Shown: positions 9,137 to 64,000 of the stretch, in pieces
Layout of the letters: each line of letters opens with the position of its first letter
How positions within the stretch are numbered: the first letter of the stretch is position 1
IMG/VR virus record: IMGVR_UViG_3300042446_001440
Span: 16,170-80,169 of that record
Direction: 5' to 3' (one strand)
From: a virus
DNA: 64,000 nucleotides
Translations under genes and position numbers: made by a program
The notes under the pieces: generated by a model
Database searches by the model: none
What the model saw: only the letters and a program-made list of their open reading frames with translations
Told to the model about the DNA's origin: nothing

Positions 9137-9187
9137 AAAGTATCCAATGGGGACAATATTCTTATATATTTATTGCAAATAACATAT

Positions 9188-9751
9188 ATGAAAAAATGCA
9201 ATAAATGTTTAAAGGAATATCCATTAGATGGTTTTAGTAAATTTAAAAGAAATAAAGATGGATATATGTCATACTGCAAAGTATGCCACCGTGTTCAAGT
9301 TAAAGCTAATAGGAGTAAATATAAAGAATACGATAAAGAATACGCTAAACTTCAATGGCCTAAAAATAAAGATAGAATTAGAGAAGAATACAGGGAGTAT
9401 TTTAAAATATATAAACGTGAACGTAGAAAAGATCCTATATTTAGATTAAAAGAAAATATGCGTAATTACTTCTATCAATCTTTCATAAAGAATAGAAATG
9501 CTAAGCGTGATTCCATTTTAAGCTATATAGGATGTTCATTCGATGATTTAAAAATATACTTAGAAAATAGTTTCGATGAAAATATGTCTTGGGAAAACTA
9601 TGGTTCATATTGGGAAATAGACCATAAAGATCCTATATTTAACTTCTCCACATCGGAAGAAGATTTATATAAATGTTGGAATTATAGTAATTTACAACCC
9701 CTAACAATATCAGAAAATAGAATAAAACATAATAAAATACAAACAAAATGA
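9188..9751 (+). mobile_element. Free-standing HNH-type homing endonuclease between nrdB and nrdA
   Basis: N-terminal CxxC..CxxC; MSWENYG..WEIDHKDP and NYSNLQPL..EN..K motifs. ATG 9188 preferred over TTG 9173. Confidence 0.75.
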
Positions 9752-11472: not shown

Positions 11473-11514
11473 CGGGCCTTTAGTATCTTCATATATTTAT
11501 TGGAAACAATAATT

Positions 11515-12150
11515 ATGATAGGAATATACAAAATTACAAATCCAAGAGGTGAAGTTTATGTGGGATTGTCAAAGAATATAGAATTGCGATGGCAATCCCA
11601 TAAAAATTTCCAATTCCATAAAAACAATAAATTAAAAGAATCTTTACTACGAGATAATATTGAACTTCATATATTTGAAGTAATTGAAGAAGTAGATATA
11701 TCGGATTTAAGACAATATGAAGCTAATGCTTTACTTCGAAAACGAGAAAGGTATTGGATTAATAAATTAAATTCATTCAATATAGGACTAAATGAAAACG
11801 GTGGTGGTAGTGGATGCGGTTCCCATACAGACGAATCTAAACAAAAGATTTCTCAATCTTTAAAGGGTAAACCAAAACCATTAGACTTCGGAGCTAAAAG
11901 AAAAAAATGGCAACATACGGACGAGTGGAAGGAAAAAGTAAAATCAGCTCCTAGATGCCCTGTACTAATGCTTAAAGATAATATAATAGTTCAAGAATTT
12001 CCAAATCAACAATCCGCAGCTGATCATTTAGGAGTAAGAAAACAAGCAATATGGAATATGTTAAACGGATTTAAAAATAGAAATGGTGTTCCTATCATCC
12101 AAGTAAGAGGATACACATTTAAATATAAAGAAAAAAATAGTATAAAATGA
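11515..12150 (+). mobile_element. GIY-YIG homing endonuclease with NUMOD3-like and HTH DNA-binding repeats
   Basis: MIGIYKITN..VYVGLS..R, RERYWI and HTDESKQKIS motifs; inserted right after nrdA. Confidence 0.85.
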
Positions 12151-15451: not shown

Positions 15452-16294
15452 ATGAAAAAACAAGCAGTATTAAGTCTATCTGGTGGAATGGATTCATCCA
15501 CACTATTACTTCATCTATTAGCTGAAGGTTATCAGGTAACAGCATTAGGATTCGATTACGGTCAAAAACACAAAGTAGAATTAGAAAGAGCAAAATCATT
15601 AGTAAAGTATATTAATGACGTTATGTTTGAAAGTAAACGAGACAATTTCGTTAAACATCAAATCATCAAATTAGACGGATTACCTTCACTATTAAATTCA
15701 GCACTAGTAGAAGGTGGAAAAGATGTTCCTGAAGGTCACTACGAACAAGACAACATGAAAGAAACAGTTGTTCCTAATCGTAATAAAATATTCAGTTCAT
15801 TAATTCAAGCAGTAGCATTATCAATTGCAACTACAGGAGATAAGAAAGAAGTAAAAATCGCATTAGGAATTCACGCTGGTGATCATGCTATTTATCCTGA
15901 CTGCAGACAAGAATTTAGAGATGCAGATATGGAAGCATTTAAATTAGGTAACTGGGATAGTGAATTAGTATCATTCTATACTCCATATCTAGATACTGAT
16001 AAATTCGGTATATTACAAGATGGATTAGCAGCATGTAACAAATTAGGGCTTAACTTTGATGAAGTATATAAGCGCACAAATACATCTTATAAACCAATTA
16101 AATTGTCAAAGGATATTTGGTTATCAGATTATAAATCAGCAGCATCAGTAGAACGTGTAGAAGCATTTATTAAATTAGGCAGACCAGATCCTGTACAATA
16201 TGGGGAAGTGGTAGAAGGTAGTGGAATAAGAATAGTAAAATGGGAAGAAGTAAGAGCATCAGTAAAAGAAGTATTAGATGCACACAATTCGTAA
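15452..16294 (+). CDS. queC: 7-cyano-7-deazaguanine (preQ0) synthase
   Basis: SGGMDS PP-loop, FDYGQKH..E, VPNRN and YPDCR. Confidence 0.92.
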   Translation: MKKQAVLSLSGGMDSSTLLLHLLAEGYQVTALGFDYGQKHKVELERAKSLVKYINDVMFESKRDNFVKHQIIKLDGLPSLLNSALVEGGKDVPEGHYEQDNMKETVVPNRNKIFSSLIQAVALSIATTGDKKEVKIALGIHAGDHAIYPDCRQEFRDADMEAFKLGNWDSELVSFYTPYLDTDKFGILQDGLAACNKLGLNFDEVYKRTNTSYKPIKLSKDIWLSDYKSAASVERVEAFIKLGRPDPVQYGEVVEGSGIRIVKWEEVRASVKEVLDAHNS

Positions 16295-16896: not shown

Positions 16897-17154
16897 ATGA
16901 GTTATATAGTTAAGTTTATATTAGTAATGTTTGTTACGATAGTAGCAGATGTTTGTTGGACCTACTATTTTCTAAATGTAGAAGAACGCAAGCCGATGGC
17001 TGCAGGTATTTGGTCAGCACTTATTATAGTAGCGAGTGCTTTTATAACAACTAGCTATGTAGCAGATAGATCATTAGTACCAGCAGCAGTTCTAGGAGCA
17101 TTTATAGGAACTGCAGGTACAGTATATTATAAAAAGAAAAAAGAAAATAAATGA
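16897..17154 (+). CDS. Small three-TM membrane protein
   Basis: Hydrophobic segments; overlaps the queE start. Confidence 0.6.
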   Translation: MSYIVKFILVMFVTIVADVCWTYYFLNVEERKPMAAGIWSALIIVASAFITTSYVADRSLVPAAVLGAFIGTAGTVYYKKKKENK

Positions 17155-18053
17155 GTAAAATAGAATCAAATAAGCTACTAATCAGTAGCGACTTCTATTC
17201 CGTCCAAGGAGAAGGAATAAGCAGTGGAATACCATCGTACTTCGTTCGTTTAGGATTATGTAATCTAACTTGCGGTATGTCTAGACCATTCACTAATAAC
17301 CTATTAAAGGAAGCAGCATTAGCTGATGGTGAAATATTCAAAGGTGATTTAGAATTAGAAGGTAAAGCAACTTGGACTTGTGATAGTACATCTCAGTGGT
17401 TATGGAGAGGTGAAAATAAAGATTTCCAATACCTAATTGATCAATGGAAAGAACAAGGTATATATGATGATATTTTAAATGGTAATATCCATATCATTTG
17501 GACAGGTGGTGAACCAACAATTAAAGGACATCAAGTAGCTATTGCCGGTTTTATTAAATATTGGGCTAATTATGTAGAAGATAATAAAGAAGGAGATACA
17601 GAAGTTCATACATTTGATCGTGAAACAAATATGCATTCTATTCATTACAAACCAGTAAATTCATTTCATGAGATAGAAACAAATGGTACAAACTATATTG
17701 AAGAATATTTATTCGGTAAACTAAATCAAATCAACTGTTCACCTAAGTTATCCAATTCAGGTATGACAGCTAAACAACGTATTAATCCAGAAGCGATTAA
17801 ACGTATAATGGAACATAAAAATTATCAATTTAAGTTTGTTGTTAGTATAGAGGACGACATTCAAGAAATCTTTAGAGACTTTATTGAGCCGTTTAATATT
17901 CCATTGAAAAATATAATTATAATGCCTGGAATGGATAGTAGAGATGATTTTCATGAAAGAACGCAGTTTAGCTTAGAAATGGCTAAAAAGTATAAGATTA
18001 GAGGTATGACCAGATTACATTTAAGTGCGTGGGATAAAACCTTGAACGTCTAA
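17151..18053 (+). CDS. queE: 7-carboxy-7-deazaguanine synthase (radical SAM)
   Basis: FYSVQGEG, FVRLGLCNLTC, CDS, TGGEP, IETNGT, CSPKL and RLH motifs. Confidence 0.92.
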   Translation: MSKIESNKLLISSDFYSVQGEGISSGIPSYFVRLGLCNLTCGMSRPFTNNLLKEAALADGEIFKGDLELEGKATWTCDSTSQWLWRGENKDFQYLIDQWKEQGIYDDILNGNIHIIWTGGEPTIKGHQVAIAGFIKYWANYVEDNKEGDTEVHTFDRETNMHSIHYKPVNSFHEIETNGTNYIEEYLFGKLNQINCSPKLSNSGMTAKQRINPEAIKRIMEHKNYQFKFVVSIEDDIQEIFRDFIEPFNIPLKNIIIMPGMDSRDDFHERTQFSLEMAKKYKIRGMTRLHLSAWDKTLNV

Positions 18054-18082
18054 AAATATATTTTCTAGATATTTATTATAGT

Positions 18083-18167
18083 AAAAGGCTGCTGGCACAG
18101 TTCTAAAATAATAGGCTCAAGGTCCTTAGAGTATGCCAGTACTCTATCATGACTAAGAGCCTTTTTT
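18083..18167 (+). promoter_or_regulatory. Pseudoknot-capable RNA leader / terminator-like hairpin before the HNH gene
   Basis: Stems AGGCTC/GAGCCT and TAGAGTA/TACTCTA; loop TGCCAG is complementary to upstream CTGGCA; T-run follows. Confidence 0.55.
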
Positions 18168-18177
18168 ATTTATTATA

Positions 18178-18750
18178 ATGCATTATAGACAGATTTGGGA
18201 ACAAGTAAATGGATTAATTCCAATTGATGAACAAGGAAGACCTTATGAAATACATCATCTAGATGGAAATCGAAAAAATAACAATGTTAATAACTTAAAG
18301 TGTGTAACTGTAGAGGATCATTACAATATACATCTACAACAAGGAGATTATTATGCTGCTTGGATTATAGGTCAAAGACTTAGCAGAAGCCTAGAAGAAT
18401 TAGTAGAACTAAAAAAGAAAATGTCAGCTGCTAAAAAAGGTAAGCCGAGTAGTTTTACGGGAAAAAAACATTCCGAAGAATCAAAACATAAAATGTCTGA
18501 ATCCGCTAAACGCAGAGGTATCCCAGAAGAAAGACAGCGTAGAATGGCGTTAGCAAGGATAGGAGTAAAAAGAGGACCATTCTCGGATGAACATAGAGCT
18601 AAACTAAGTGCGGCACATAAAGGTAAACCTAACCTAGGCAAAGGAATATCAAAAGGATTTGTAGAATGCCCTTACTGCAATAAAGTAGGAGGTGCACCAG
18701 GAATGAAAAGGCACCACTTTACACACTGTAAAAAATATTTGGAAAATTAA
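18178..18750 (+). mobile_element. HNH homing endonuclease with NUMOD3 repeats inserted after queE
   Basis: EIHHLDGNRKNNNVNNL..H motif; HSEESKHKMS and SDEHRAKLS repeats; C-terminal CPYC..HHF..C. Confidence 0.85.
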
Positions 18751-18840
18751 AATAATTAACATATCTTTATTTTATGGTTATAAACATTATCTACAACCTC
18801 GTATACATTCCAGTAATTTATAAAACATTAAACGTATAAC

Positions 18841-19119
18841 GTGAAAACAATTAACATAGAAATCGCAAATATTACTGATGCTCAAGCAATTGCTTTAGAG
18901 GATATGTTTAGAACTTGGGTTAGTTTAGGAAATATTGGCTCAAGCAGATGGACATCCTTTTATGCAGACGGAGACGGTAACTTTAGGCCTAGTATTAAAG
19001 TAGACGGTAAAGACGCTGAATTTTCTCCTTTAATAGATGAAAAAATAAGAAATAAAATGTGGGAAGAAGGGGAATATAGAATTGATTATGACATGCTTGC
19101 ATGGAAATTAAAACATTAA
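18841..19119 (+). CDS. Hypothetical protein (cassette)
   Basis: 92-aa ORF between repeat copies 1 and 2; contains YADGDGNFRP. Confidence 0.6.
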   Translation: MKTINIEIANITDAQAIALEDMFRTWVSLGNIGSSRWTSFYADGDGNFRPSIKVDGKDAEFSPLIDEKIRNKMWEEGEYRIDYDMLAWKLKH

Positions 19120-19129
19120 ACGTATAATA

Positions 19130-19291
19130 GTGGAAAATATAATAGAAGTAAAATTCTGGATGGAACTTGAAACTACAGTAGATAATATGAATGAATTTAC
19201 TAAAAGTGAAGATTATAGATTAGTAGCTGAAATACTTAAAAAGTATTCTATTGATGTAGTTATTTGCTCTAAAGTAAAACCAAAACATTAA
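19130..19291 (+). CDS. Small hypothetical protein (cassette, 53 aa, GTG start)
   Basis: VENIIEVKFWMELE...KVKPKH*, lying between repeat copies 2 and 3. Confidence 0.45.
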   Translation: MENIIEVKFWMELETTVDNMNEFTKSEDYRLVAEILKKYSIDVVICSKVKPKH

Positions 19292-19300
19292 ACACATAAT

Positions 19301-19468
19301 ATGACAATCGATAAAGACGAACTATTTAAACTCTATATGGAGTGGGTCAATGAAGTAACTGAAGAATGTGATTGGAAAACTTCATTCGGCCCAGAAGAGA
19401 TCGTACATTCAATAGCAACAATATTAGAACAAAACCCCCAACTAATAAATAATGAAGTTACTAACTAA
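19301..19468 (+). CDS. Small hypothetical protein (55 aa)
   Basis: MTIDKDELFKLYMEWVNEVTEECDWKTSFGPEEIV...; starts right after repeat copy 3. Confidence 0.5.
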   Translation: MTIDKDELFKLYMEWVNEVTEECDWKTSFGPEEIVHSIATILEQNPQLINNEVTN

Positions 19469-20084
19469 ATCAAACGGTAATCTATCCCGTACACCAGAAG
19501 AAATAGAACAAATGATCGAAAATGCTACAACAGCATACGCTAACTTCCTTACAGCAGTTGGATTTGACTATACAGCAGATAGACAAACCGAAGATACACC
19601 TCGTCGTGTAGCTAAAGCATGGCTTAAGGACCTAATTGTAGGTTCAGTAACAAACGAACCAAACATCACTACATTTCCTAACGATGAAGGATATGATGGA
19701 TTAGTAATTCAATCAGGTATCCCTATCACTAGTATGTGTGCACATCATAACCTAGCATTTACTGGATTCGCTACAGTAGCATACGTTCCAGGTGAAATGG
19801 TAATCGGATTATCAAAACTAAATCGTATCGTTGAATGGTTTGCTCGTAGACCACAAATGCAAGAATCATTAACACAACAAATTCATGATTATATTGCTGA
19901 TAAGATGGATTGTAAATCAGTAGCAGTAAGTATCGCTTGTAAACATACATGCTGTTCACATAGAGGTATTAAACACGCCTCAGTAATGTCAACCAATAAA
20001 TTCAGTGGAGTATTCATGGAACGAGACAATTTAATCCGTGAAGAATTACTATCAGCAATCGAAATGAACGGAACTAAATTCTAA
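19452..20084 (+). CDS. folE: GTP cyclohydrolase I
   Basis: DTPRRVAK, SMCAHH, GLSKLNR, RRPQMQE and HTCCSHRG. Confidence 0.95.
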   Translation: MKLLTKSNGNLSRTPEEIEQMIENATTAYANFLTAVGFDYTADRQTEDTPRRVAKAWLKDLIVGSVTNEPNITTFPNDEGYDGLVIQSGIPITSMCAHHNLAFTGFATVAYVPGEMVIGLSKLNRIVEWFARRPQMQESLTQQIHDYIADKMDCKSVAVSIACKHTCCSHRGIKHASVMSTNKFSGVFMERDNLIREELLSAIEMNGTKF

Positions 20085-20086
20085 TT

Positions 20087-20506
20087 ATGAAGAAAAAATA
20101 TTACAGCTGGGAAGAAATAGACGAGCATATGGAAATGTTATCTTTGGATATTATGAAAAGTGGAGTTAACTTCAATAAAATATATGGTATACAAAGAGGC
20201 GGTTTAATTCCTGCAGTAATGTTATCTCATATACTAAATACTCCTATATCGGATATAATAGATTCCTATACACTAGTAGTAGATGATATTTGCGATACTG
20301 GAGAAACACTAAAATTCTATTCAGAACAAAAGTGTCCAACAGCTACTATCCATTATAAACGCTCAGCAATTATTGAACCTACGTTTTGGAGAGAAATAGC
20401 TGAAGAAGATATATGGTACTGTTACCCTTGGGAAAGAAAAGATTCAAAAACAATTGCTGACTATAAAATATACAATGACACAAGAAGAAAAAGATTTAAT
20501 ACTTGA
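20087..20506 (+). CDS. Type I phosphoribosyltransferase (purine PRT-like)
   Basis: RGGLIPA and PRPP-binding LVVDDICDTGETL; C-terminal YPWE. Confidence 0.85.
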   Translation: MKKKYYSWEEIDEHMEMLSLDIMKSGVNFNKIYGIQRGGLIPAVMLSHILNTPISDIIDSYTLVVDDICDTGETLKFYSEQKCPTATIHYKRSAIIEPTFWREIAEEDIWYCYPWERKDSKTIADYKIYNDTRRKRFNT

Positions 20507-20782: not shown

Positions 20783-21310
20783 ATGTTAAACGCAAAACAA
20801 ATATTAGAAGAAGGATTATTACAATTAGAAACAGCACAAGGTAAGCCAGCACAAGTTGGATACGACCTTACACTTAAAGCAGTACAAAAAGTAGGTAATA
20901 GCATTGGTGGAAACTTTGAATTTATAGGTAAAATTGGTAAAATCTTAAAAGATAAAACCGAACTTACAACCTACACTCCTAAAGATATTATTAATTTAGA
21001 TGGAGTTAGAGGATGGCTATTACACGAGGGTGTATATGATATCACATTTAATGAAGGATGTAAAATACCAGAAAATCGAGTAGCATTTATTAAACAACGC
21101 TCATCTCTCTACCGCAATGGTGCTATAATCAATAGCCCTGTATTTGATCCCGGCTTTGAAACAGCAAATATGGGTACTATATTATACGTACATGAAACAA
21201 TATTCATTGAAGAAAATGCACGTGTAGCACAGATATACTTCCACGAATGCAATGGCGCTGATCTATACAACGGACAGTGGCAAAACGATAAGCAACGTAG
21301 CTCACTATAA
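20783..21310 (+). CDS. dcd: dCTP deaminase / trimeric dUTPase family protein
   Basis: GYDLTL, RSSLYRNG, FDPGF, RVAQIYF and YNGQWQ. Confidence 0.8.
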   Translation: MLNAKQILEEGLLQLETAQGKPAQVGYDLTLKAVQKVGNSIGGNFEFIGKIGKILKDKTELTTYTPKDIINLDGVRGWLLHEGVYDITFNEGCKIPENRVAFIKQRSSLYRNGAIINSPVFDPGFETANMGTILYVHETIFIEENARVAQIYFHECNGADLYNGQWQNDKQRSSL

Positions 21311-48292: not shown

Positions 48293-48335
48293 CTCATCTC
48301 CCCCTGTTCTCATATATTTATTGGAAACAATAATT

Positions 48336-48782
48336 ATGAAAACAGGGACTAAGGAGTATTATGCCAATTATTATGAGCAAAACAAAGAAGAACATAATTT
48401 TAAGTCTATAGAGTGGCAATCTCAAAATAAAGATAAGGCATTAGAATCCGTTAAAAAATGGAAAGGAAAGAATGCAGATAAAGTAAGAGAATGGGATAGA
48501 TTACGGAAACAACAACAAAATAAAGAACGTAGACAATTTGTAAATGAATATAAATTAACATGTTCTTGTAAAAAATGTGGCGATATTAGACCATATGTCT
48601 TAGATTTTCACCACTTGGACCCTTCAGCCAAATCGTTTGACTTAGGTAATGCTTCCAAATATAATATATCTAAATTAAAATTAGAATTAGAAAAATGTAT
48701 TACATTATGCAGAAATTGCCATAGTGAATTTCATTATTTTGAAAAAAAACAAAATATAATTATTACGGAGTATGTAAAATAA
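48336..48782 (+). mobile_element. HNH homing endonuclease immediately downstream of tmRNA
   Basis: CKKCG..VLDFHHLDP..K..LEKCITLCRNCHSEFH; ATG 48336 follows the shared endonuclease leader. Confidence 0.8.
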
Positions 48783-60397: not shown

Positions 60398-61030
60398 ATG
60401 AAATACCTACTACCACTGTTATTGTTGTTTTGCATCAATACTTACGCTCAAGATACTATTACATTAGTACATAAGTCATATAGAACTACATTCAGTAAAT
60501 CAAAACATTATCCAGTTAAGGTAGAGTGGTGGTTAACTAGAGCAATGTTAAGTTGCCCTGTTAAAATAAAACGTACAGATAGATTCGTAGCTGATCCTCA
60601 GCTACCAAATGAAACAAATATACAAAAAGATTATGATGGTAATGGATTGGATCGTGGGCATAACTTTAATGCTGCTGATGGTGCCTGTGATCAGACGTCG
60701 ATGGTAGAGTCATTTTATTTTTCAAATATGACGGCTCAATATCCTTCATTGAATAGGGGTGATTGGAAAGCATTAGAATCAATGACACGTGAATATGCAC
60801 TTAAAGATGATTCAATTCATGTGTGGTGTGGCTCAATAGGTGTAGCTAAGAAGATTGGAACAACATCAGTACCAACTGAATGTTGGAAAGTATTATACTT
60901 TGTTAAAACTAAAGAATGGATGGCATTTTTATTCTCAAATACACCTACTAAACCAACAGGTATCCATTCACACGAGGTAACAGTTGAAATAATAGAGAAA
61001 CTAACAGGCTTTAAGTTTAAGGCAAAATAA
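60398..61030 (+). CDS. Secreted DNA/RNA non-specific endonuclease (NucA/Serratia-type)
   Basis: Signal peptide; LDRGH, SFYFSNMTAQ..LNRGDW..LE and VPTECWK. Confidence 0.9.
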   Translation: MKYLLPLLLLFCINTYAQDTITLVHKSYRTTFSKSKHYPVKVEWWLTRAMLSCPVKIKRTDRFVADPQLPNETNIQKDYDGNGLDRGHNFNAADGACDQTSMVESFYFSNMTAQYPSLNRGDWKALESMTREYALKDDSIHVWCGSIGVAKKIGTTSVPTECWKVLYFVKTKEWMAFLFSNTPTKPTGIHSHEVTVEIIEKLTGFKFKAK

Positions 61031-61069
61031 AAGTCATACATTTACTACGAACCAAAAAATAAATAAAAT

Positions 61070-61255
61070 ATGGCTATTCAAACGAAAGATCAAGCGCAAG
61101 GAAAAGTAGACAAAAAGTTAGATAGAGTTTTAAATAAGCCAAAAAAGTATGTCCCATTGATGGAACGTAACTTCAACGACTTAACTACATTAGCAGAACA
61201 ATTTGAGTGGTTAAAGCGTAAGCAACGAATAAAAGATAGAAACGCGGCACAATAA
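61070..61255 (+). CDS. Hypothetical protein
   Basis: 61-aa ORF after a promoter motif. Confidence 0.5.
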   Translation: MAIQTKDQAQGKVDKKLDRVLNKPKKYVPLMERNFNDLTTLAEQFEWLKRKQRIKDRNAAQ

Positions 61256-61285
61256 TATTCGTACATTCATCTAAATTAAAAACGT

Positions 61286-61480
61286 ATGACAAATAATATT
61301 GAATTAGATATGAAATGTCTTCAAATAGAAGATTTAGTTAGAGGAATGGTAATGTGTGGTTGCGATGATCTTGAAAAGTTAGTAGCTGCTGTCGATACAC
61401 ATTATACACCAACTAACGAATTTGAAATGGAAATGTATAGCGAAGCTATTATATACGGCAAATTAGGTGTTTTAAACTAA
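61286..61480 (+). CDS. Hypothetical protein
   Basis: 64-aa ORF after a promoter motif. Confidence 0.5.
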   Translation: MTNNIELDMKCLQIEDLVRGMVMCGCDDLEKLVAAVDTHYTPTNEFEMEMYSEAIIYGKLGVLN

Positions 61481-61550
61481 TTTGGGAGGCAAAGTAATAC
61501 TCGTACATTCAACGTATTAAATAATTAAAAAACCAAATAAATAAGTTATG
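61481..61550 (+). promoter_or_regulatory. Early promoter plus leader (TTTG-N19-TACATTCA ... AACCAAATAAATAAGTTATG)
   Basis: Leader repeated at 62347-62400, 63481-63537 and 63717-63771. Confidence 0.7.
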
Positions 61551-62339
61551 ACAAACGAATTAAGCACAACATCAATGATGACTAGCACTAGTTACTCATT
61601 AGAGCAAATCAGAGAAATTGCTCCCTCTGTATTTACAGAAACCAAAGCAGCCCATTTAACAGACAAGTACATTCAAACCCCAACATCACGTGTTGTAGAG
61701 GATTTAATGGCACTAGGATGGGAAGTAACTAAAGCGCAAGAAGTTAAAGCGCGTAAAGGTAAAGGATTCCAAAAACACCTTGTTGTATTCCGTAACCCGG
61801 ATATTATGATTAAGGGTAAAGGGGGTGATGATGCATTTCCACAAATCCTATTAACAAATAGTCATGATGGTAAAGCAGCATTTAATTTCAGAGTAGGTAT
61901 TTTCAGATTAGTATGTAGTAATGGATTAGTAATTAGCGATGCTGATTTTAGTAATGTATCTATTCGTCATATGAATTATACATTCGAAACACTACAAACC
62001 AAAATTGGAGAAGTAATTGCTAAGTTACCTGGTTTAGTTGCTAAGATTAATTTATTCAAATCAACTCAGCTAAGTGAAACAGCAATGATTGAATTTGCTA
62101 CTAAAGCAATAGCATTGAGAAATAAAGAAACGGTTAATATAATGGAAGTGTTACGAGCTGATAGGGATGCTGATATGGGAGATGATTTATGGTCAGTATT
62201 TAATCGTGTTCAAGAGAAGATTATTAACGGTGGTTATGGTTACGGACGTAAGAGTCGTAAGGCAAGATCAATTAAGAACTTCCAACAAGATATTAAGTTA
62301 AATGAAGAACTATTTGAATTAGCTGATACTTACCTATAA
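61548..62339 (+). CDS. DUF932-family protein
   Basis: APSVF, KHLVVFR, LTNSHDG, GIFRLVCSNG and LWSVFNRVQE. Confidence 0.85.
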   Translation: MTNELSTTSMMTSTSYSLEQIREIAPSVFTETKAAHLTDKYIQTPTSRVVEDLMALGWEVTKAQEVKARKGKGFQKHLVVFRNPDIMIKGKGGDDAFPQILLTNSHDGKAAFNFRVGIFRLVCSNGLVISDADFSNVSIRHMNYTFETLQTKIGEVIAKLPGLVAKINLFKSTQLSETAMIEFATKAIALRNKETVNIMEVLRADRDADMGDDLWSVFNRVQEKIINGGYGYGRKSRKARSIKNFQQDIKLNEELFELADTYL

Positions 62340-62346
62340 GTAAAAT

Positions 62347-62400
62347 GGGGGAGGCAAAACCTCCCCCTTACATTCACGTTAACCAAATAAATAAGTTATG
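62347..62400 (+). promoter_or_regulatory. Hairpin/promoter/leader module
   Basis: GGGGGAGG-CAAAA-CCTCCCCC, then TACATTCA and GTTAACCAAATAAATAAGTTATG. Confidence 0.65.
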
Positions 62401-62934
62401 ATAAAAACGTTAGTAATTCACCCTAAGGATTCAAGTACAGATTTCCTAAAACCAATATATCAACATCTTACTGACGCAACGATCCTTACAGGAGGTAAAA
62501 CTAAAGATGAAGTAAGAGAATTAATTGAACAACACGATAAAATAATTATGTTAGGACATGGTTCACCAAGTGGTTTATTTAGTTGTGGTCAATTTGGAAT
62601 GGACGGAATGATTATCGATCGAAGTATGGTTGCAGCGTTAGGTAATAAGAAAAATAACATATACATTTGGTGTAATGCAGATCGATTTGTTAATATGTAT
62701 TACTTAAAAGGATTTTATACAGGTATGTTTATATCTGAATATAGCGAAGCATCATATTGTGGAGTATCATCATTCAAGGGTGAAGTAGAACAATCAAATG
62801 CTTTATTTGCAGATATAGTAGGCCAATCTATATTAATGGAAGCTAAAAATATACAAGCTAACACAAAGCTGTTGTATCACATTAAGAATAGTGGAGTCAA
62901 CAAATACAATAATGATAGATTATATTATAGATAA
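62398..62934 (+). CDS. Hypothetical protein, possible caspase/gingipain-fold (clan CD) peptidase
   Basis: IIMLGHGS and IYIWCNA resemble a His-Cys dyad. Confidence 0.4.
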   Translation: MIKTLVIHPKDSSTDFLKPIYQHLTDATILTGGKTKDEVRELIEQHDKIIMLGHGSPSGLFSCGQFGMDGMIIDRSMVAALGNKKNNIYIWCNADRFVNMYYLKGFYTGMFISEYSEASYCGVSSFKGEVEQSNALFADIVGQSILMEAKNIQANTKLLYHIKNSGVNKYNNDRLYYR

Positions 62935-62947
62935 GTAAAAAATAAAT

Positions 62948-63253
62948 ATGGCCCCTAAGAAAAAAGAAAATGATATTTTTATGGGAGATGGACAACATCT
63001 AAACATCCAATCCTCTCAACATCTTCAAACATTTAATTCATTAAAATTGTTTACAGTTGAAGATGGTGCTATTGAACTAAATATAGAGATAAAAGCTGAT
63101 TTTAGTAAGATACCCTCTAAATATCAAGAGGTATTTTTGAATATGTTTTCATCAAAGTATGTAGGTACAGTATCATTTGGTGACAATCCATTTAGCGCTT
63201 GTCAACCACTTAAAAAACGCAGATGGTATCAGTTTTGGCGTTCTATAAAATAG
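62948..63253 (+). CDS. Hypothetical protein
   Basis: 101-aa ORF ending RRWYQFW. Confidence 0.5.
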   Translation: MAPKKKENDIFMGDGQHLNIQSSQHLQTFNSLKLFTVEDGAIELNIEIKADFSKIPSKYQEVFLNMFSSKYVGTVSFGDNPFSACQPLKKRRWYQFWRSIK

Positions 63254-63534
63254 TATAATATTTATAAAAAATAAAAATAAATGGCATCAGCACAAGTAGA
63301 AATGAAAGTAATTAGTGTGTTATTAGATGAAGCGATGGATAGTGGATTGGAAGTAGAAGTAATATATTCAGCTCTTAAAGTAATGAGAGAAGACGACGCA
63401 ATCACCCCAGCACAAGCATTTCAATACGCAATGGACGAGTGGGTTAAGTAAATACATAAGCACTCATCATACAAACACTAAAGTGGCTAGGCAAAATTGC
63501 TTAGCTACCTTTATGTTAACCAAATAAATAAGTT

Positions 63535-63723
63535 ATGAGTGTAAAATTAATGCAAACCGAAACAACATTTCATGTTGAGTATAATGGAGAAGAATATTCC
63601 ATTACCATATTAGAAGATGGTGTTATAGGTTATACGAACTATGACGTGTTTGATGACCAAGGTCAATTAGTAGATGAAGATTTAGAAGCAATACTTATTG
63701 CTTATTTAGAAGAGCATTTGTAA
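63535..63723 (+). CDS. Hypothetical acidic protein
   Basis: 62-aa ORF after the repeated leader. Confidence 0.55.
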   Translation: MSVKLMQTETTFHVEYNGEEYSITILEDGVIGYTNYDVFDDQGQLVDEDLEAILIAYLEEHL

Positions 63724-63768
63724 GGCAAAGTAATGATTGTACATTCACGTTAACCAAATAAATAAGTT

Positions 63769-64000
63769 ATGAACCAAGAAAAAAAACGCGGCCGCCCGGC
63801 AAAAGTAAAGAACGTTACCTACGTTCCATCATTAATTGATTTTTCAAACATTACACCCTTAAACAAATTAGATATTGATTCTAAAATGTTAGAAGTAATG
63901 AAAAGTGGTTTACCTATAGATGAATTATTATCTGAAGAAGGTGGTTTACCTTGTGCATCAAATTATATGATGATAGGCGATCCTGGAGTAGGTAAAACAA
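63769..64000 (+). CDS. RecA-superfamily (RadA/Sms-like) ATPase with AT-hook-like N-terminus; 3'-truncated
   Basis: MNQEKKRGRPAK...SGLPIDELLSEEGGLP...IGDPGVGKT. Confidence 0.7.
   Translation, partial: MNQEKKRGRPAKVKNVTYVPSLIDFSNITPLNKLDIDSKMLEVMKSGLPIDELLSEEGGLPCASNYMMIGDPGVGKT

Follow-up and report, generated by a model that had tools for sequence, protein, structure and literature searches.

The 64,000-nucleotide (nt) stretch of viral DNA analyzed here (positions 16,170 to 80,169 of the IMG/VR record IMGVR_UViG_3300042446_001440; hereafter, the window) carries, between the genes queE and folE, a stack of small genes closed by copies of an 18-nt sequence, AAAACATTAAACGTATAA, that corresponds to the last five codons and the stop codon of queE. 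This 18-mer, termed M, is probably a short recombination linker, and the stack is accordingly viewed as a product of linker-mediated phage mosaicism rather than as an integron. The parent of the window is an 80-kilobase (kb) IMG/VR viral contig, about 49% complete and without the capsid region, with a GC content of 32%, nearly all genes on a single strand, and A-rich leaders without Shine-Dalgarno sequences; the sequencing runs that hold the sequence are lake-water metagenomes. The gene order is queC, small genes, queE, an HNH/NUMOD3 endonuclease gene, open reading frames (ORFs) of 92, 53, and 55 amino acids (aa), folE, and a phosphoribosyltransferase gene, and the genes and 18-mer copies of the queE–folE region located below lie on the plus strand.

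The gene queE (17151–18053) encodes a 7-carboxy-7-deazaguanine synthase-like radical S-adenosylmethionine protein of 300 aa (PHROG 2076, QueE-like, E = 4e-36; tblastn matches to the annotated QueE of haloviruses and Cellulophaga phages) and ends in AAAACCTTGAACGTCTAA, translated as KTLNV*. As noticed in an initial sequence-only reading of this DNA, the terminus recurs downstream: M is found exactly at 18822–18839 (copy 1) and 19110–19127 (copy 2) and with two mismatches at 19282–19299 (copy 3), while the end of queE itself (18036–18053, copy 0) differs from M at three positions, all of them synonymous third positions. Spacers of 1, 2, and 1 nt separate the three downstream copies from the ORFs that follow, which start at GTG 18841, GTG 19130, and ATG 19301, respectively, in agreement with the same reading. 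Six matches with up to three mismatches are observed against 0.51 expected, and in the rest of the 80-kb contig the sole further match is one site with three mismatches. Two of the units are a cassette gene of 92 aa (18841–19119; GTG start; phrog_10928), which terminates at the TAA inside copy 2, and a cassette gene of 53 aa (19130–19291; GTG start); both ORFs end at the TAA within M in the frame ...KH*, that is, outside the frame of queE. GTG starts such as those at 18841 and 19130 are rare, with about 5 among the 109 ORFs called in this genome, and the homologues in loci L190 and L166 use ATG.

A megablast search of the region against 50,697 phage records returned zero matches, and all comparison therefore rests on IMG/VR contigs, among which related loci are designated by L-numbers. 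Searching IMG/VR for QueE yielded 64 related loci (63–91% aa identity), and an exact scan for the 18-mer yielded 100 stretches, mostly at or just behind queE; after the removal of duplicates, 83 different queE-to-folE intervals were available. M, allowing up to three mismatches, forms the terminus of queE in 74 of these intervals, 40 of which carry the exact sequence. Among complete relatives, a genome of 183 kb with terminal repeats and one of 167 kb have M with up to two mismatches inside the interval and, barring one two-mismatch site, nowhere else. M-like sequence stands upstream of 27 of 222 junctions inside the slot versus 0 of 798 control gene starts in the flanks. The 18-mer is thus no genome-wide start motif; had it been one, the original proposal would have been undone.

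The gap between queE and folE varies from 10 nt, an empty site in L050, to 6464 nt, and 124 ORF families occur in the 83 arrangements. Alongside the empty site there are many alleles with a single 18-mer and others with up to four extra copies (range 0–4), so that the proposed site of gene accumulation at the end of queE, with the queE terminus repeated after the genes, is borne out by the intervals of relatives. About 25 arrangements hold 1–4 extra copies, which never differ in strand and, with few exceptions, form an unbroken row from queE; single-gene cassettes with a 3' repeat are stacked from a fixed site in numbers that vary among relatives. A nested series illustrates this layout (f-numbers denote ORF families): L033 reads queE-M-f1-f4-f2..., L089 reads queE-M-f30-M-f1-f4-f2..., and L082, the richest array with up to five M copies and four capped cassettes, reads queE-M-f43-M-f30-M-f26-M-f19-M-f1-f4-f2.... 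In L124 and L088, whose flanks are 94% identical, the difference is one exact 190-nt unit composed of f18 and M and bounded by a 25-nt direct repeat, M followed by TATGGAA.

Capping by M is a property of particular families. The 3' copy is present in every context for f18, f24 (the 53-aa family), f29, f30, f43, and f26; for instance, homologues of the 53-aa gene in L166/L057 (98% nt identity) and L118/L039 (88%) retain the 3' linker in all three contexts despite different neighbors. Resident families, namely the zinc-finger protein f1, the membrane peptides f2 and f3, f4, and f15 (the 55-aa family), are never capped, and many genes in the same slot of relatives are without the repeat, so that the closure of every unit by a repeat, as first described, does not extend to the slot at large. 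The 55-aa resident gene of the window (19301–19468), which overlaps the start of folE, is 96% identical in L007, where no linker precedes it. The gene folE (19452–20084; GTP cyclohydrolase I, Pfam GTP_cyclohydroI, 6e-48) forms the conserved right flank of the variable slot. Sites with 5–6 mismatches show a mild excess at distal junctions (14.5% vs 7.9%), which is not convincing as a sign that these junctions are decayed repeats.

The reading frames that enter M are not uniform: upstream ORFs end inside it in the queE frame (...KTLNV*, approximately 16 copies) or in the +1 frame (...KH*, 6 copies, a set that includes both cassette genes of the window), or end before it, and within the 53-aa family the frame used in the window differs from that in L118. 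M therefore behaves as a unit of DNA and not as a peptide. Its 5' edge is sharp, as queE and the 12 nt preceding the copies agree at 4.0 positions on average versus 3.06 in shuffles; longer queE remnants on the repeats were considered and found only in L083 and the f43 family (6–8 nt), and none in the window. At L083:500–570, a variant queE tail (…WNQVLNK*) is followed about 10 nt on by a displaced second tail, CTTGGAAT plus an exact 18-mer, with no gene between; this cargo-less duplicated terminus is either the footprint of a loss or the first step of a capture.

No special structure or signal is attached to M. The 50-nt windows at all copies fold no better than shuffles on either strand (minimum free energy 0 to −2.3 kcal/mol; z 0.2 to 1.1), providing no attC-like fold; no promoter-like site overlaps the repeats, and the count of such sites is not above that in shuffles; no terminator-like sites are found at the repeats; and an Rfam scan of 17000–20200 gives nothing at E ≤ 1. 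With the start codon 1–2 nt after the repeat, there is moreover no room for a transcript start. Between homologous capped cassettes, the divergence per site is 4.9% in M versus 5.8% in the adjacent cassette DNA, which therefore gives no sign of special constraint on M; exact copies number 19 of 38, and their excess is best read as the result of youth and fast turnover.

The 92-aa gene allows a capture to be followed in sequence. Its homologues (82–88% identity) are located in three viral contigs, L190–L192, away from any queE, where they start with ATG, keep the native end ...LAWKLNNQNK*, and are without M. The gene of the window borders on M at both ends, the joints being short common strings, TTAAA/AAAACA at the 3' side and ATAAC at the 5' side; from TTAAA/AAAACA onward its last codons, and with them its native C-terminus, are replaced by the linker, and at the start ATG is changed to GTG. 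An apparent capture event is thus directly readable from this comparison. The GCATGG before copy 2, formerly equated with the residues AW of queE, must be discarded as a queE remnant: it lies 2 nt out of register and is native to the 92-aa family, whose repeat-free homologues have LAW in their tail. In L190, an unrelated viral contig of 46.5 kb, a 67-aa ORF and the homologue of the 92-aa gene are bordered at 2266–2790 by another repeated junction, the 13-mer CAAAACAAATAAC, present in three exact copies that each run on into NT-ATG; cassettes capped by repeats therefore exist with another linker and away from queE.

Other repeated junctions occur in the window itself. At 61013–63776, a module of 33–55 nt (…TACATTCACGTTAACCAAATAAATAAGTTATGA) is repeated 3–5 times upstream of consecutive small genes, making up a second local family of junctions repeated at gene starts in the phage, and a leader of 30–46 nt, TCATATATTTATTGGAAACAATAATTATGA, recurs at 9159–9204, 11489–11518, and 48307–48352, each time before a gene. 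Because of the L190 array and these other junctions, repeated stop-start linkers look like a general habit of these phages, of which M is the case in which the end of a conserved gene serves as the linker.

The HNH gene (18178–18750) has a history of its own. Its product is a predicted free-standing homing endonuclease with HNH_3 (9e-11) and NUMOD3 (5e-15) domains, both over the curated Pfam cut-offs, a match to PHROG 12324, "intron-like DNA endonuclease" (2e-25), and a C-terminal zinc-finger-like CxxC...HxxxC arrangement. A homologue (81% aa identity) occupies the same slot after queE in L170, which has no extra M copies, and the gene is absent from about 140 other queE loci, leaving the window and L170 as the only carriers. 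The leader of the gene within the inserted block (18054–18177, 124 nt) begins right after the queE stop and is approximately 75% identical in L170; its paired segments end in a T-run, and Rfam gives no match to it.

Compared with L007, its closest relative, the window is 98–100% identical up to about 17776, approximately 70% identical over the last 277 nt of queE, unrelated through the cassettes, and 96–100% identical from 19301 onward, copy 3 marking the right edge of the differing block. The queE gene is consequently chimeric, with L007 as the nearest relative of the 5' 626 nt (98%) and L170 as the best match of the 3' tract (17777–18053; 80.5%). The chimeric queE together with the L170 match is the co-conversion signature of putative endonuclease homing, by which the foreign tract would have arrived with the HNH gene. 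This foreign 277-nt tract therefore explains the three synonymous differences at the queE terminus; the terminus has changed to no greater extent than the remainder of the tract, since 15 of its 18 positions match the M consensus while the tract is only about 70% identical to L007. The sequence-only reading had treated the HNH gene as part of a cassette and the queE end as a recoded, nuclease-resistant copy. Neither view is supported, as the same slot in L170 and the chimeric queE mark the HNH gene as a separate homing-type insertion, and HNH-free relatives also have queE ends with three mismatches; resistance recoding concentrated at the terminus is unsupported, since divergence is uniform over the 277 nt, and such recoding is not needed to account for the queE end.

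A further match to M inside queE (17791–17808, ATTAAACGTATAA, 13 nt in common with M) was rejected as an additional repeat because it is a conserved coding motif, AIKRI, found in 20 of 83 relatives. The site lies 256 nt before the queE stop, and the L007 recombination breakpoint falls about 20 nt upstream of it, a nearness that is probably coincidental. Smaller mosaic patches of 76–88% identity at 15501–16250 (inside queC) and 20801–21100 (near a dCTP-deaminase-like gene) interrupt the otherwise 97–100% identity to L007.

Between the HNH stop and copy 1 lie 71 nt (18751–18821) that contain most of a 21-aa ORF (18774–18839). This ORF, originally counted with the HNH gene as one unit, does exist and does end in the linker; it resembles a remnant, and the searches yielded no homologue. 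The 71-nt stretch is not significantly queE-like and has no relative by blastn against 180 related loci or by an exact IMG/VR scan of the copy-1 junction; it is probably the 3' remnant of a capped cassette truncated by the HNH insertion. The pre-insertion allele was not recovered by blastn of the HNH flanks against the 180 loci or by an exact IMG/VR junction scan.

Taken together, this anatomy suggests the following course of events. In freshwater T4-like phages of a large group, the queE–folE gap is a hyperplastic slot, in which the end of queE, usually followed by T-ATG(GAA), forms an unstructured stop-start junction of 18–25 nt. Short-homology or microhomology recombination between co-infecting or replicating genomes would join DNA at this junction, the likely machinery being the phages' own UvsX/RecA-type system acting in recombination-dependent replication. 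Newly captured small genes would settle directly behind queE, each with a 3' linker copy, and older residents without a linker (the zinc-finger protein, small membrane proteins, and the 55-aa gene) would be pushed away from queE; from then on, a gene lying between two linkers could be lost, gained, or swapped together with one linker as a precise unit. In the window, such events would have left the stack linker, 92-aa gene, linker, 53-aa gene, linker, and the HNH gene would have entered independently right after the queE stop, bringing approximately 277 nt of foreign queE 3' end. The enzymology, that is, general short-homology recombination, and the attachment of the first linker to a new gene are the two steps that we infer rather than observe.

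The genetic background of these phages is consistent with such a course. A RecA/UvsX-like gene is present in five of five complete relatives (94–100% complete), and a T4 Gp23-type capsid gene is present in four of four tested. Phage_integrase (PF00589), Resolvase (PF00239), and Y1_Tnp are absent from the same five relatives, in a search whose positive controls for PF00589 were recovered in 14 of 14 cases, and neither a tyrosine nor a serine recombinase is found in the examined region of the window's 80-kb contig. The integron-like mechanism initially proposed is therefore not supported, given the absence of three recombinase families from five complete genomes and the missing attC-like fold.

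Several points weigh against a general linker recombination. In the assembled unitigs (Logan contigs) of four lake runs, on which the read-level comparison rests, there is neither a recombination intermediate nor a within-population excision variant, and 17932–19692 is matched without a difference by a 1761-nt contig from a different lake sample taken in another year; the array is therefore real and stable on that scale. An apparent unitig joint (18843 to 19110, with a 20-nt side) and two loose ends, GCAGCTTGGA and TGGAAATGTT, were rejected as traces of excision, as they fit the queE-linker-membrane-gene junctions of other phages (L090). Random illegitimate joining should leave variable queE remnants, but most copies start at the same base, and this constant start is what an enzyme specific for the sequence could equally produce. 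Exact copies are numerous and those with 2–4 mismatches few; such a bimodal distribution could reflect maintenance as well as rapid turnover. A stretch of 18–25 nt is also short for UvsX-type recombination, and an unrecognized enzyme is possible, as the exclusion covers three recombinase families.

Among the alternatives, M may instead be kept as a good translation-restart or initiation region, in which case only the recombinants that keep M would express the downstream gene and its role in recombination would be secondary. A start codon 1–5 nt after nearly every copy, host-type signals that dispense with Shine-Dalgarno sequences in favor of A-rich leaders, and TAA in two frames within the repeat fit this explanation, which is nevertheless unlikely: M stands before none of the 798 other gene starts of the same genomes, most slot genes are without it, it is no more conserved than the cargo, and exact unit insertions and deletions are unexplained by selection on expression alone.

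Equally unlikely is that the 18-mer is a recognized site, at which a putative phage enzyme, perhaps one of the homing-type nucleases of the slot, picks up single-gene units behind queE and releases them again. If true, this would amount to an integrase-free, integron-like device in lytic T4-like phages that collects accessory and anti-defense genes beside a DNA-modification operon. Two further alternatives can be weighed, both slightly less likely.

In the first, a veritable phage integron, an unrecognized phage or host enzyme acts on the 18-mer as its site, and circles consisting of a gene and an 18-mer are integrated at, or cut out from, the end of queE. The integron-like polarity with queE-proximal stacking, the exact unit insertions and deletions, the sharp and constant 5' edge of the repeat, the many exact copies with few intermediates, and an imperfect palindrome (10/12, TTAAACGTATAA) that can be read off within the repeat all speak for this possibility. 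It is quite improbable all the same, because five complete relatives lack tyrosine and serine recombinases and a Y1 transposase, the hairpin is missing on both strands, the repeat drifts at the rate of its cargo, and many slot genes have no repeat; a generic process also fits better with the like use of a different 13-nt junction in another phage.

The second alternative, which is doubtful to the same degree, holds that homing endonucleases drive the pattern, with the queE-end junction as their target: repair of breaks from co-infecting phages would duplicate the junction and import genes, and the altered junctions of the window would represent resistance. The HNH gene does lie exactly at the junction in two phages with a co-converted queE tract, and a GIY-YIG gene is present in the same interval of L010, L076, and L100. 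None of the four window copies has the canonical form ...GTATAA-T-ATG (the queE end is interrupted, two copies precede GTG starts, and one carries two changes), yet approximately 45% of the copies in HNH-free phages are likewise non-canonical; at p of about 0.09 for three non-canonical downstream copies, this is a weak hint of avoidance of a nuclease site. Moreover, only 2 of about 140 loci contain this HNH gene, the slot is free of endonuclease genes in most arrays, and L170 has the HNH gene yet no extra copies. Finally, a chance match between A-rich junctions in a genome of 32% GC can hardly account for the queE-end likeness of the downstream repeats, since the observed count is reached by 0 of 100 shuffles, the three differences at the queE end are all synonymous, and the exact 18-mer is the queE end in 40 of the 83 arrangements, so that on this comparison with relatives the explanation counts as already refuted.

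With regard to cargo, the three small proteins of the window have no assignable function in Pfam or PHROG, and the Protein Atlas gives no usable match for the 92-aa protein. In L074 (4789–5463), a homologue of the Acb3 inhibitor of the cyclic-oligonucleotide-based antiphage signaling system (Pfam PF25187, 6e-38) follows directly after the terminal repeat of queE, and the slot therefore carries anti-defense cargo. Further cargo in relatives includes a Rieske oxygenase, a phosphoribosyltransferase, a dCTP-deaminase-like protein, a thioredoxin, a 2-oxoglutarate oxygenase, an epimerase, a methyltransferase, and Cpn10. A GIY-YIG endonuclease gene at the folE-proximal end of the interval (L076:2801–3439; also L010 and L100) is a second homing-type gene family in the queE–folE slot.

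How lytic phages acquire and shuffle small ORFan and anti-defense genes is poorly understood, and to our knowledge the sole mechanism of this kind described so far is the shuffling mediated by promoter-early stem-loop (PeSL) elements in coliphages; a literature search of limited coverage found no published description of queE-end linker cassettes. Linker-mediated mosaicism at queE would constitute a second and simpler solution in abundant freshwater T4-like phages, in which a borrowed stop-start junction of 18–25 nt marks a single hot slot. The slot would offer a compact natural model for the minimum homology needed by phage recombination, and the queE end a practical marker for harvesting novel accessory genes from metagenomes. 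The analysis also separates two events in the same DNA, the arrival of a homing endonuclease with a co-converted queE tail and the building of a cassette stack.

With respect to known systems, the shuffling works like that of PeSL cassettes and the layout is like that of an integron, although M has neither the promoter and stem-loop that define the former nor the integrase and attC fold that define the latter. In PeSL cassettes of T4-type phages (Arbiol et al. 2010, PMC2839356; Comeau et al. 2014, PMC4122927), as here, short repeats bound small ORFan genes in hyperplastic regions, repeat-bounded insertions, deletions, or replacements distinguish close relatives, and no dedicated recombinase takes part; the 190-nt unit of L124/L088, the nested series, and the right breakpoint between the window and L007 at copy 3 agree with this likeness, as does the setting of a T4-like phage with its own recombination system. 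However, a PeSL lies between genes and is a regulatory module that combines a sigma-70 promoter with a stem-loop terminator; about 50 copies are spread over plastic regions, and mini-circles have been shown for PeSLs (PMC2839356; PMC4122927), whereas M is 18–25 nt long, derives from the coding end of one conserved gene without promoter, terminator, or fold, is confined to one slot, and stacks directionally from queE.

Similarly, the M arrays share with integrons their promoterless single-gene units, a 3' repeat on each, the newest unit nearest a fixed site, and a variable number of cassettes; they differ in having no integrase and plain direct repeats instead of a folded bottom-strand attC structure, and in that they are anchored at the end of a metabolic gene and carried by lytic T4-like phages. 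Genomic islands at the 3' ends of tRNA genes offer another parallel, in which incoming DNA replaces the 3' end of the target, the displaced end remains as a direct repeat on the far side, and tandem accretion may follow. Repeated insertion likewise yields arrays of repeats at a gene 3' end, but tRNA-end islands need an island-encoded integrase and insert kilobases, while the units described here measure 160–700 nt and have no integrase.

The free-standing homing endonucleases of T4-like phages (the seg and mob genes, and I-HmuI-type HNH enzymes with NUMOD domains) co-convert flanking markers, and the HNH gene of the window resembles them in its HNH_3 and NUMOD3 domains, its position between conserved genes, its presence in the same slot of a second phage, and its foreign flanking tract; this comparison covers the HNH block, whose activity is predicted, and the altered queE end, and not the repeat-capped cassettes. 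In the modular evolution of lambdoid phages, short conserved linkers at gene boundaries are preferred crossover points between unrelated modules, and M is likewise a short boundary sequence that would serve as a crossover point. The lambdoid linkers were inferred from single mosaic joints, whereas M occurs in tandem up to five times in one slot, where exact insertions and deletions of whole units are visible.

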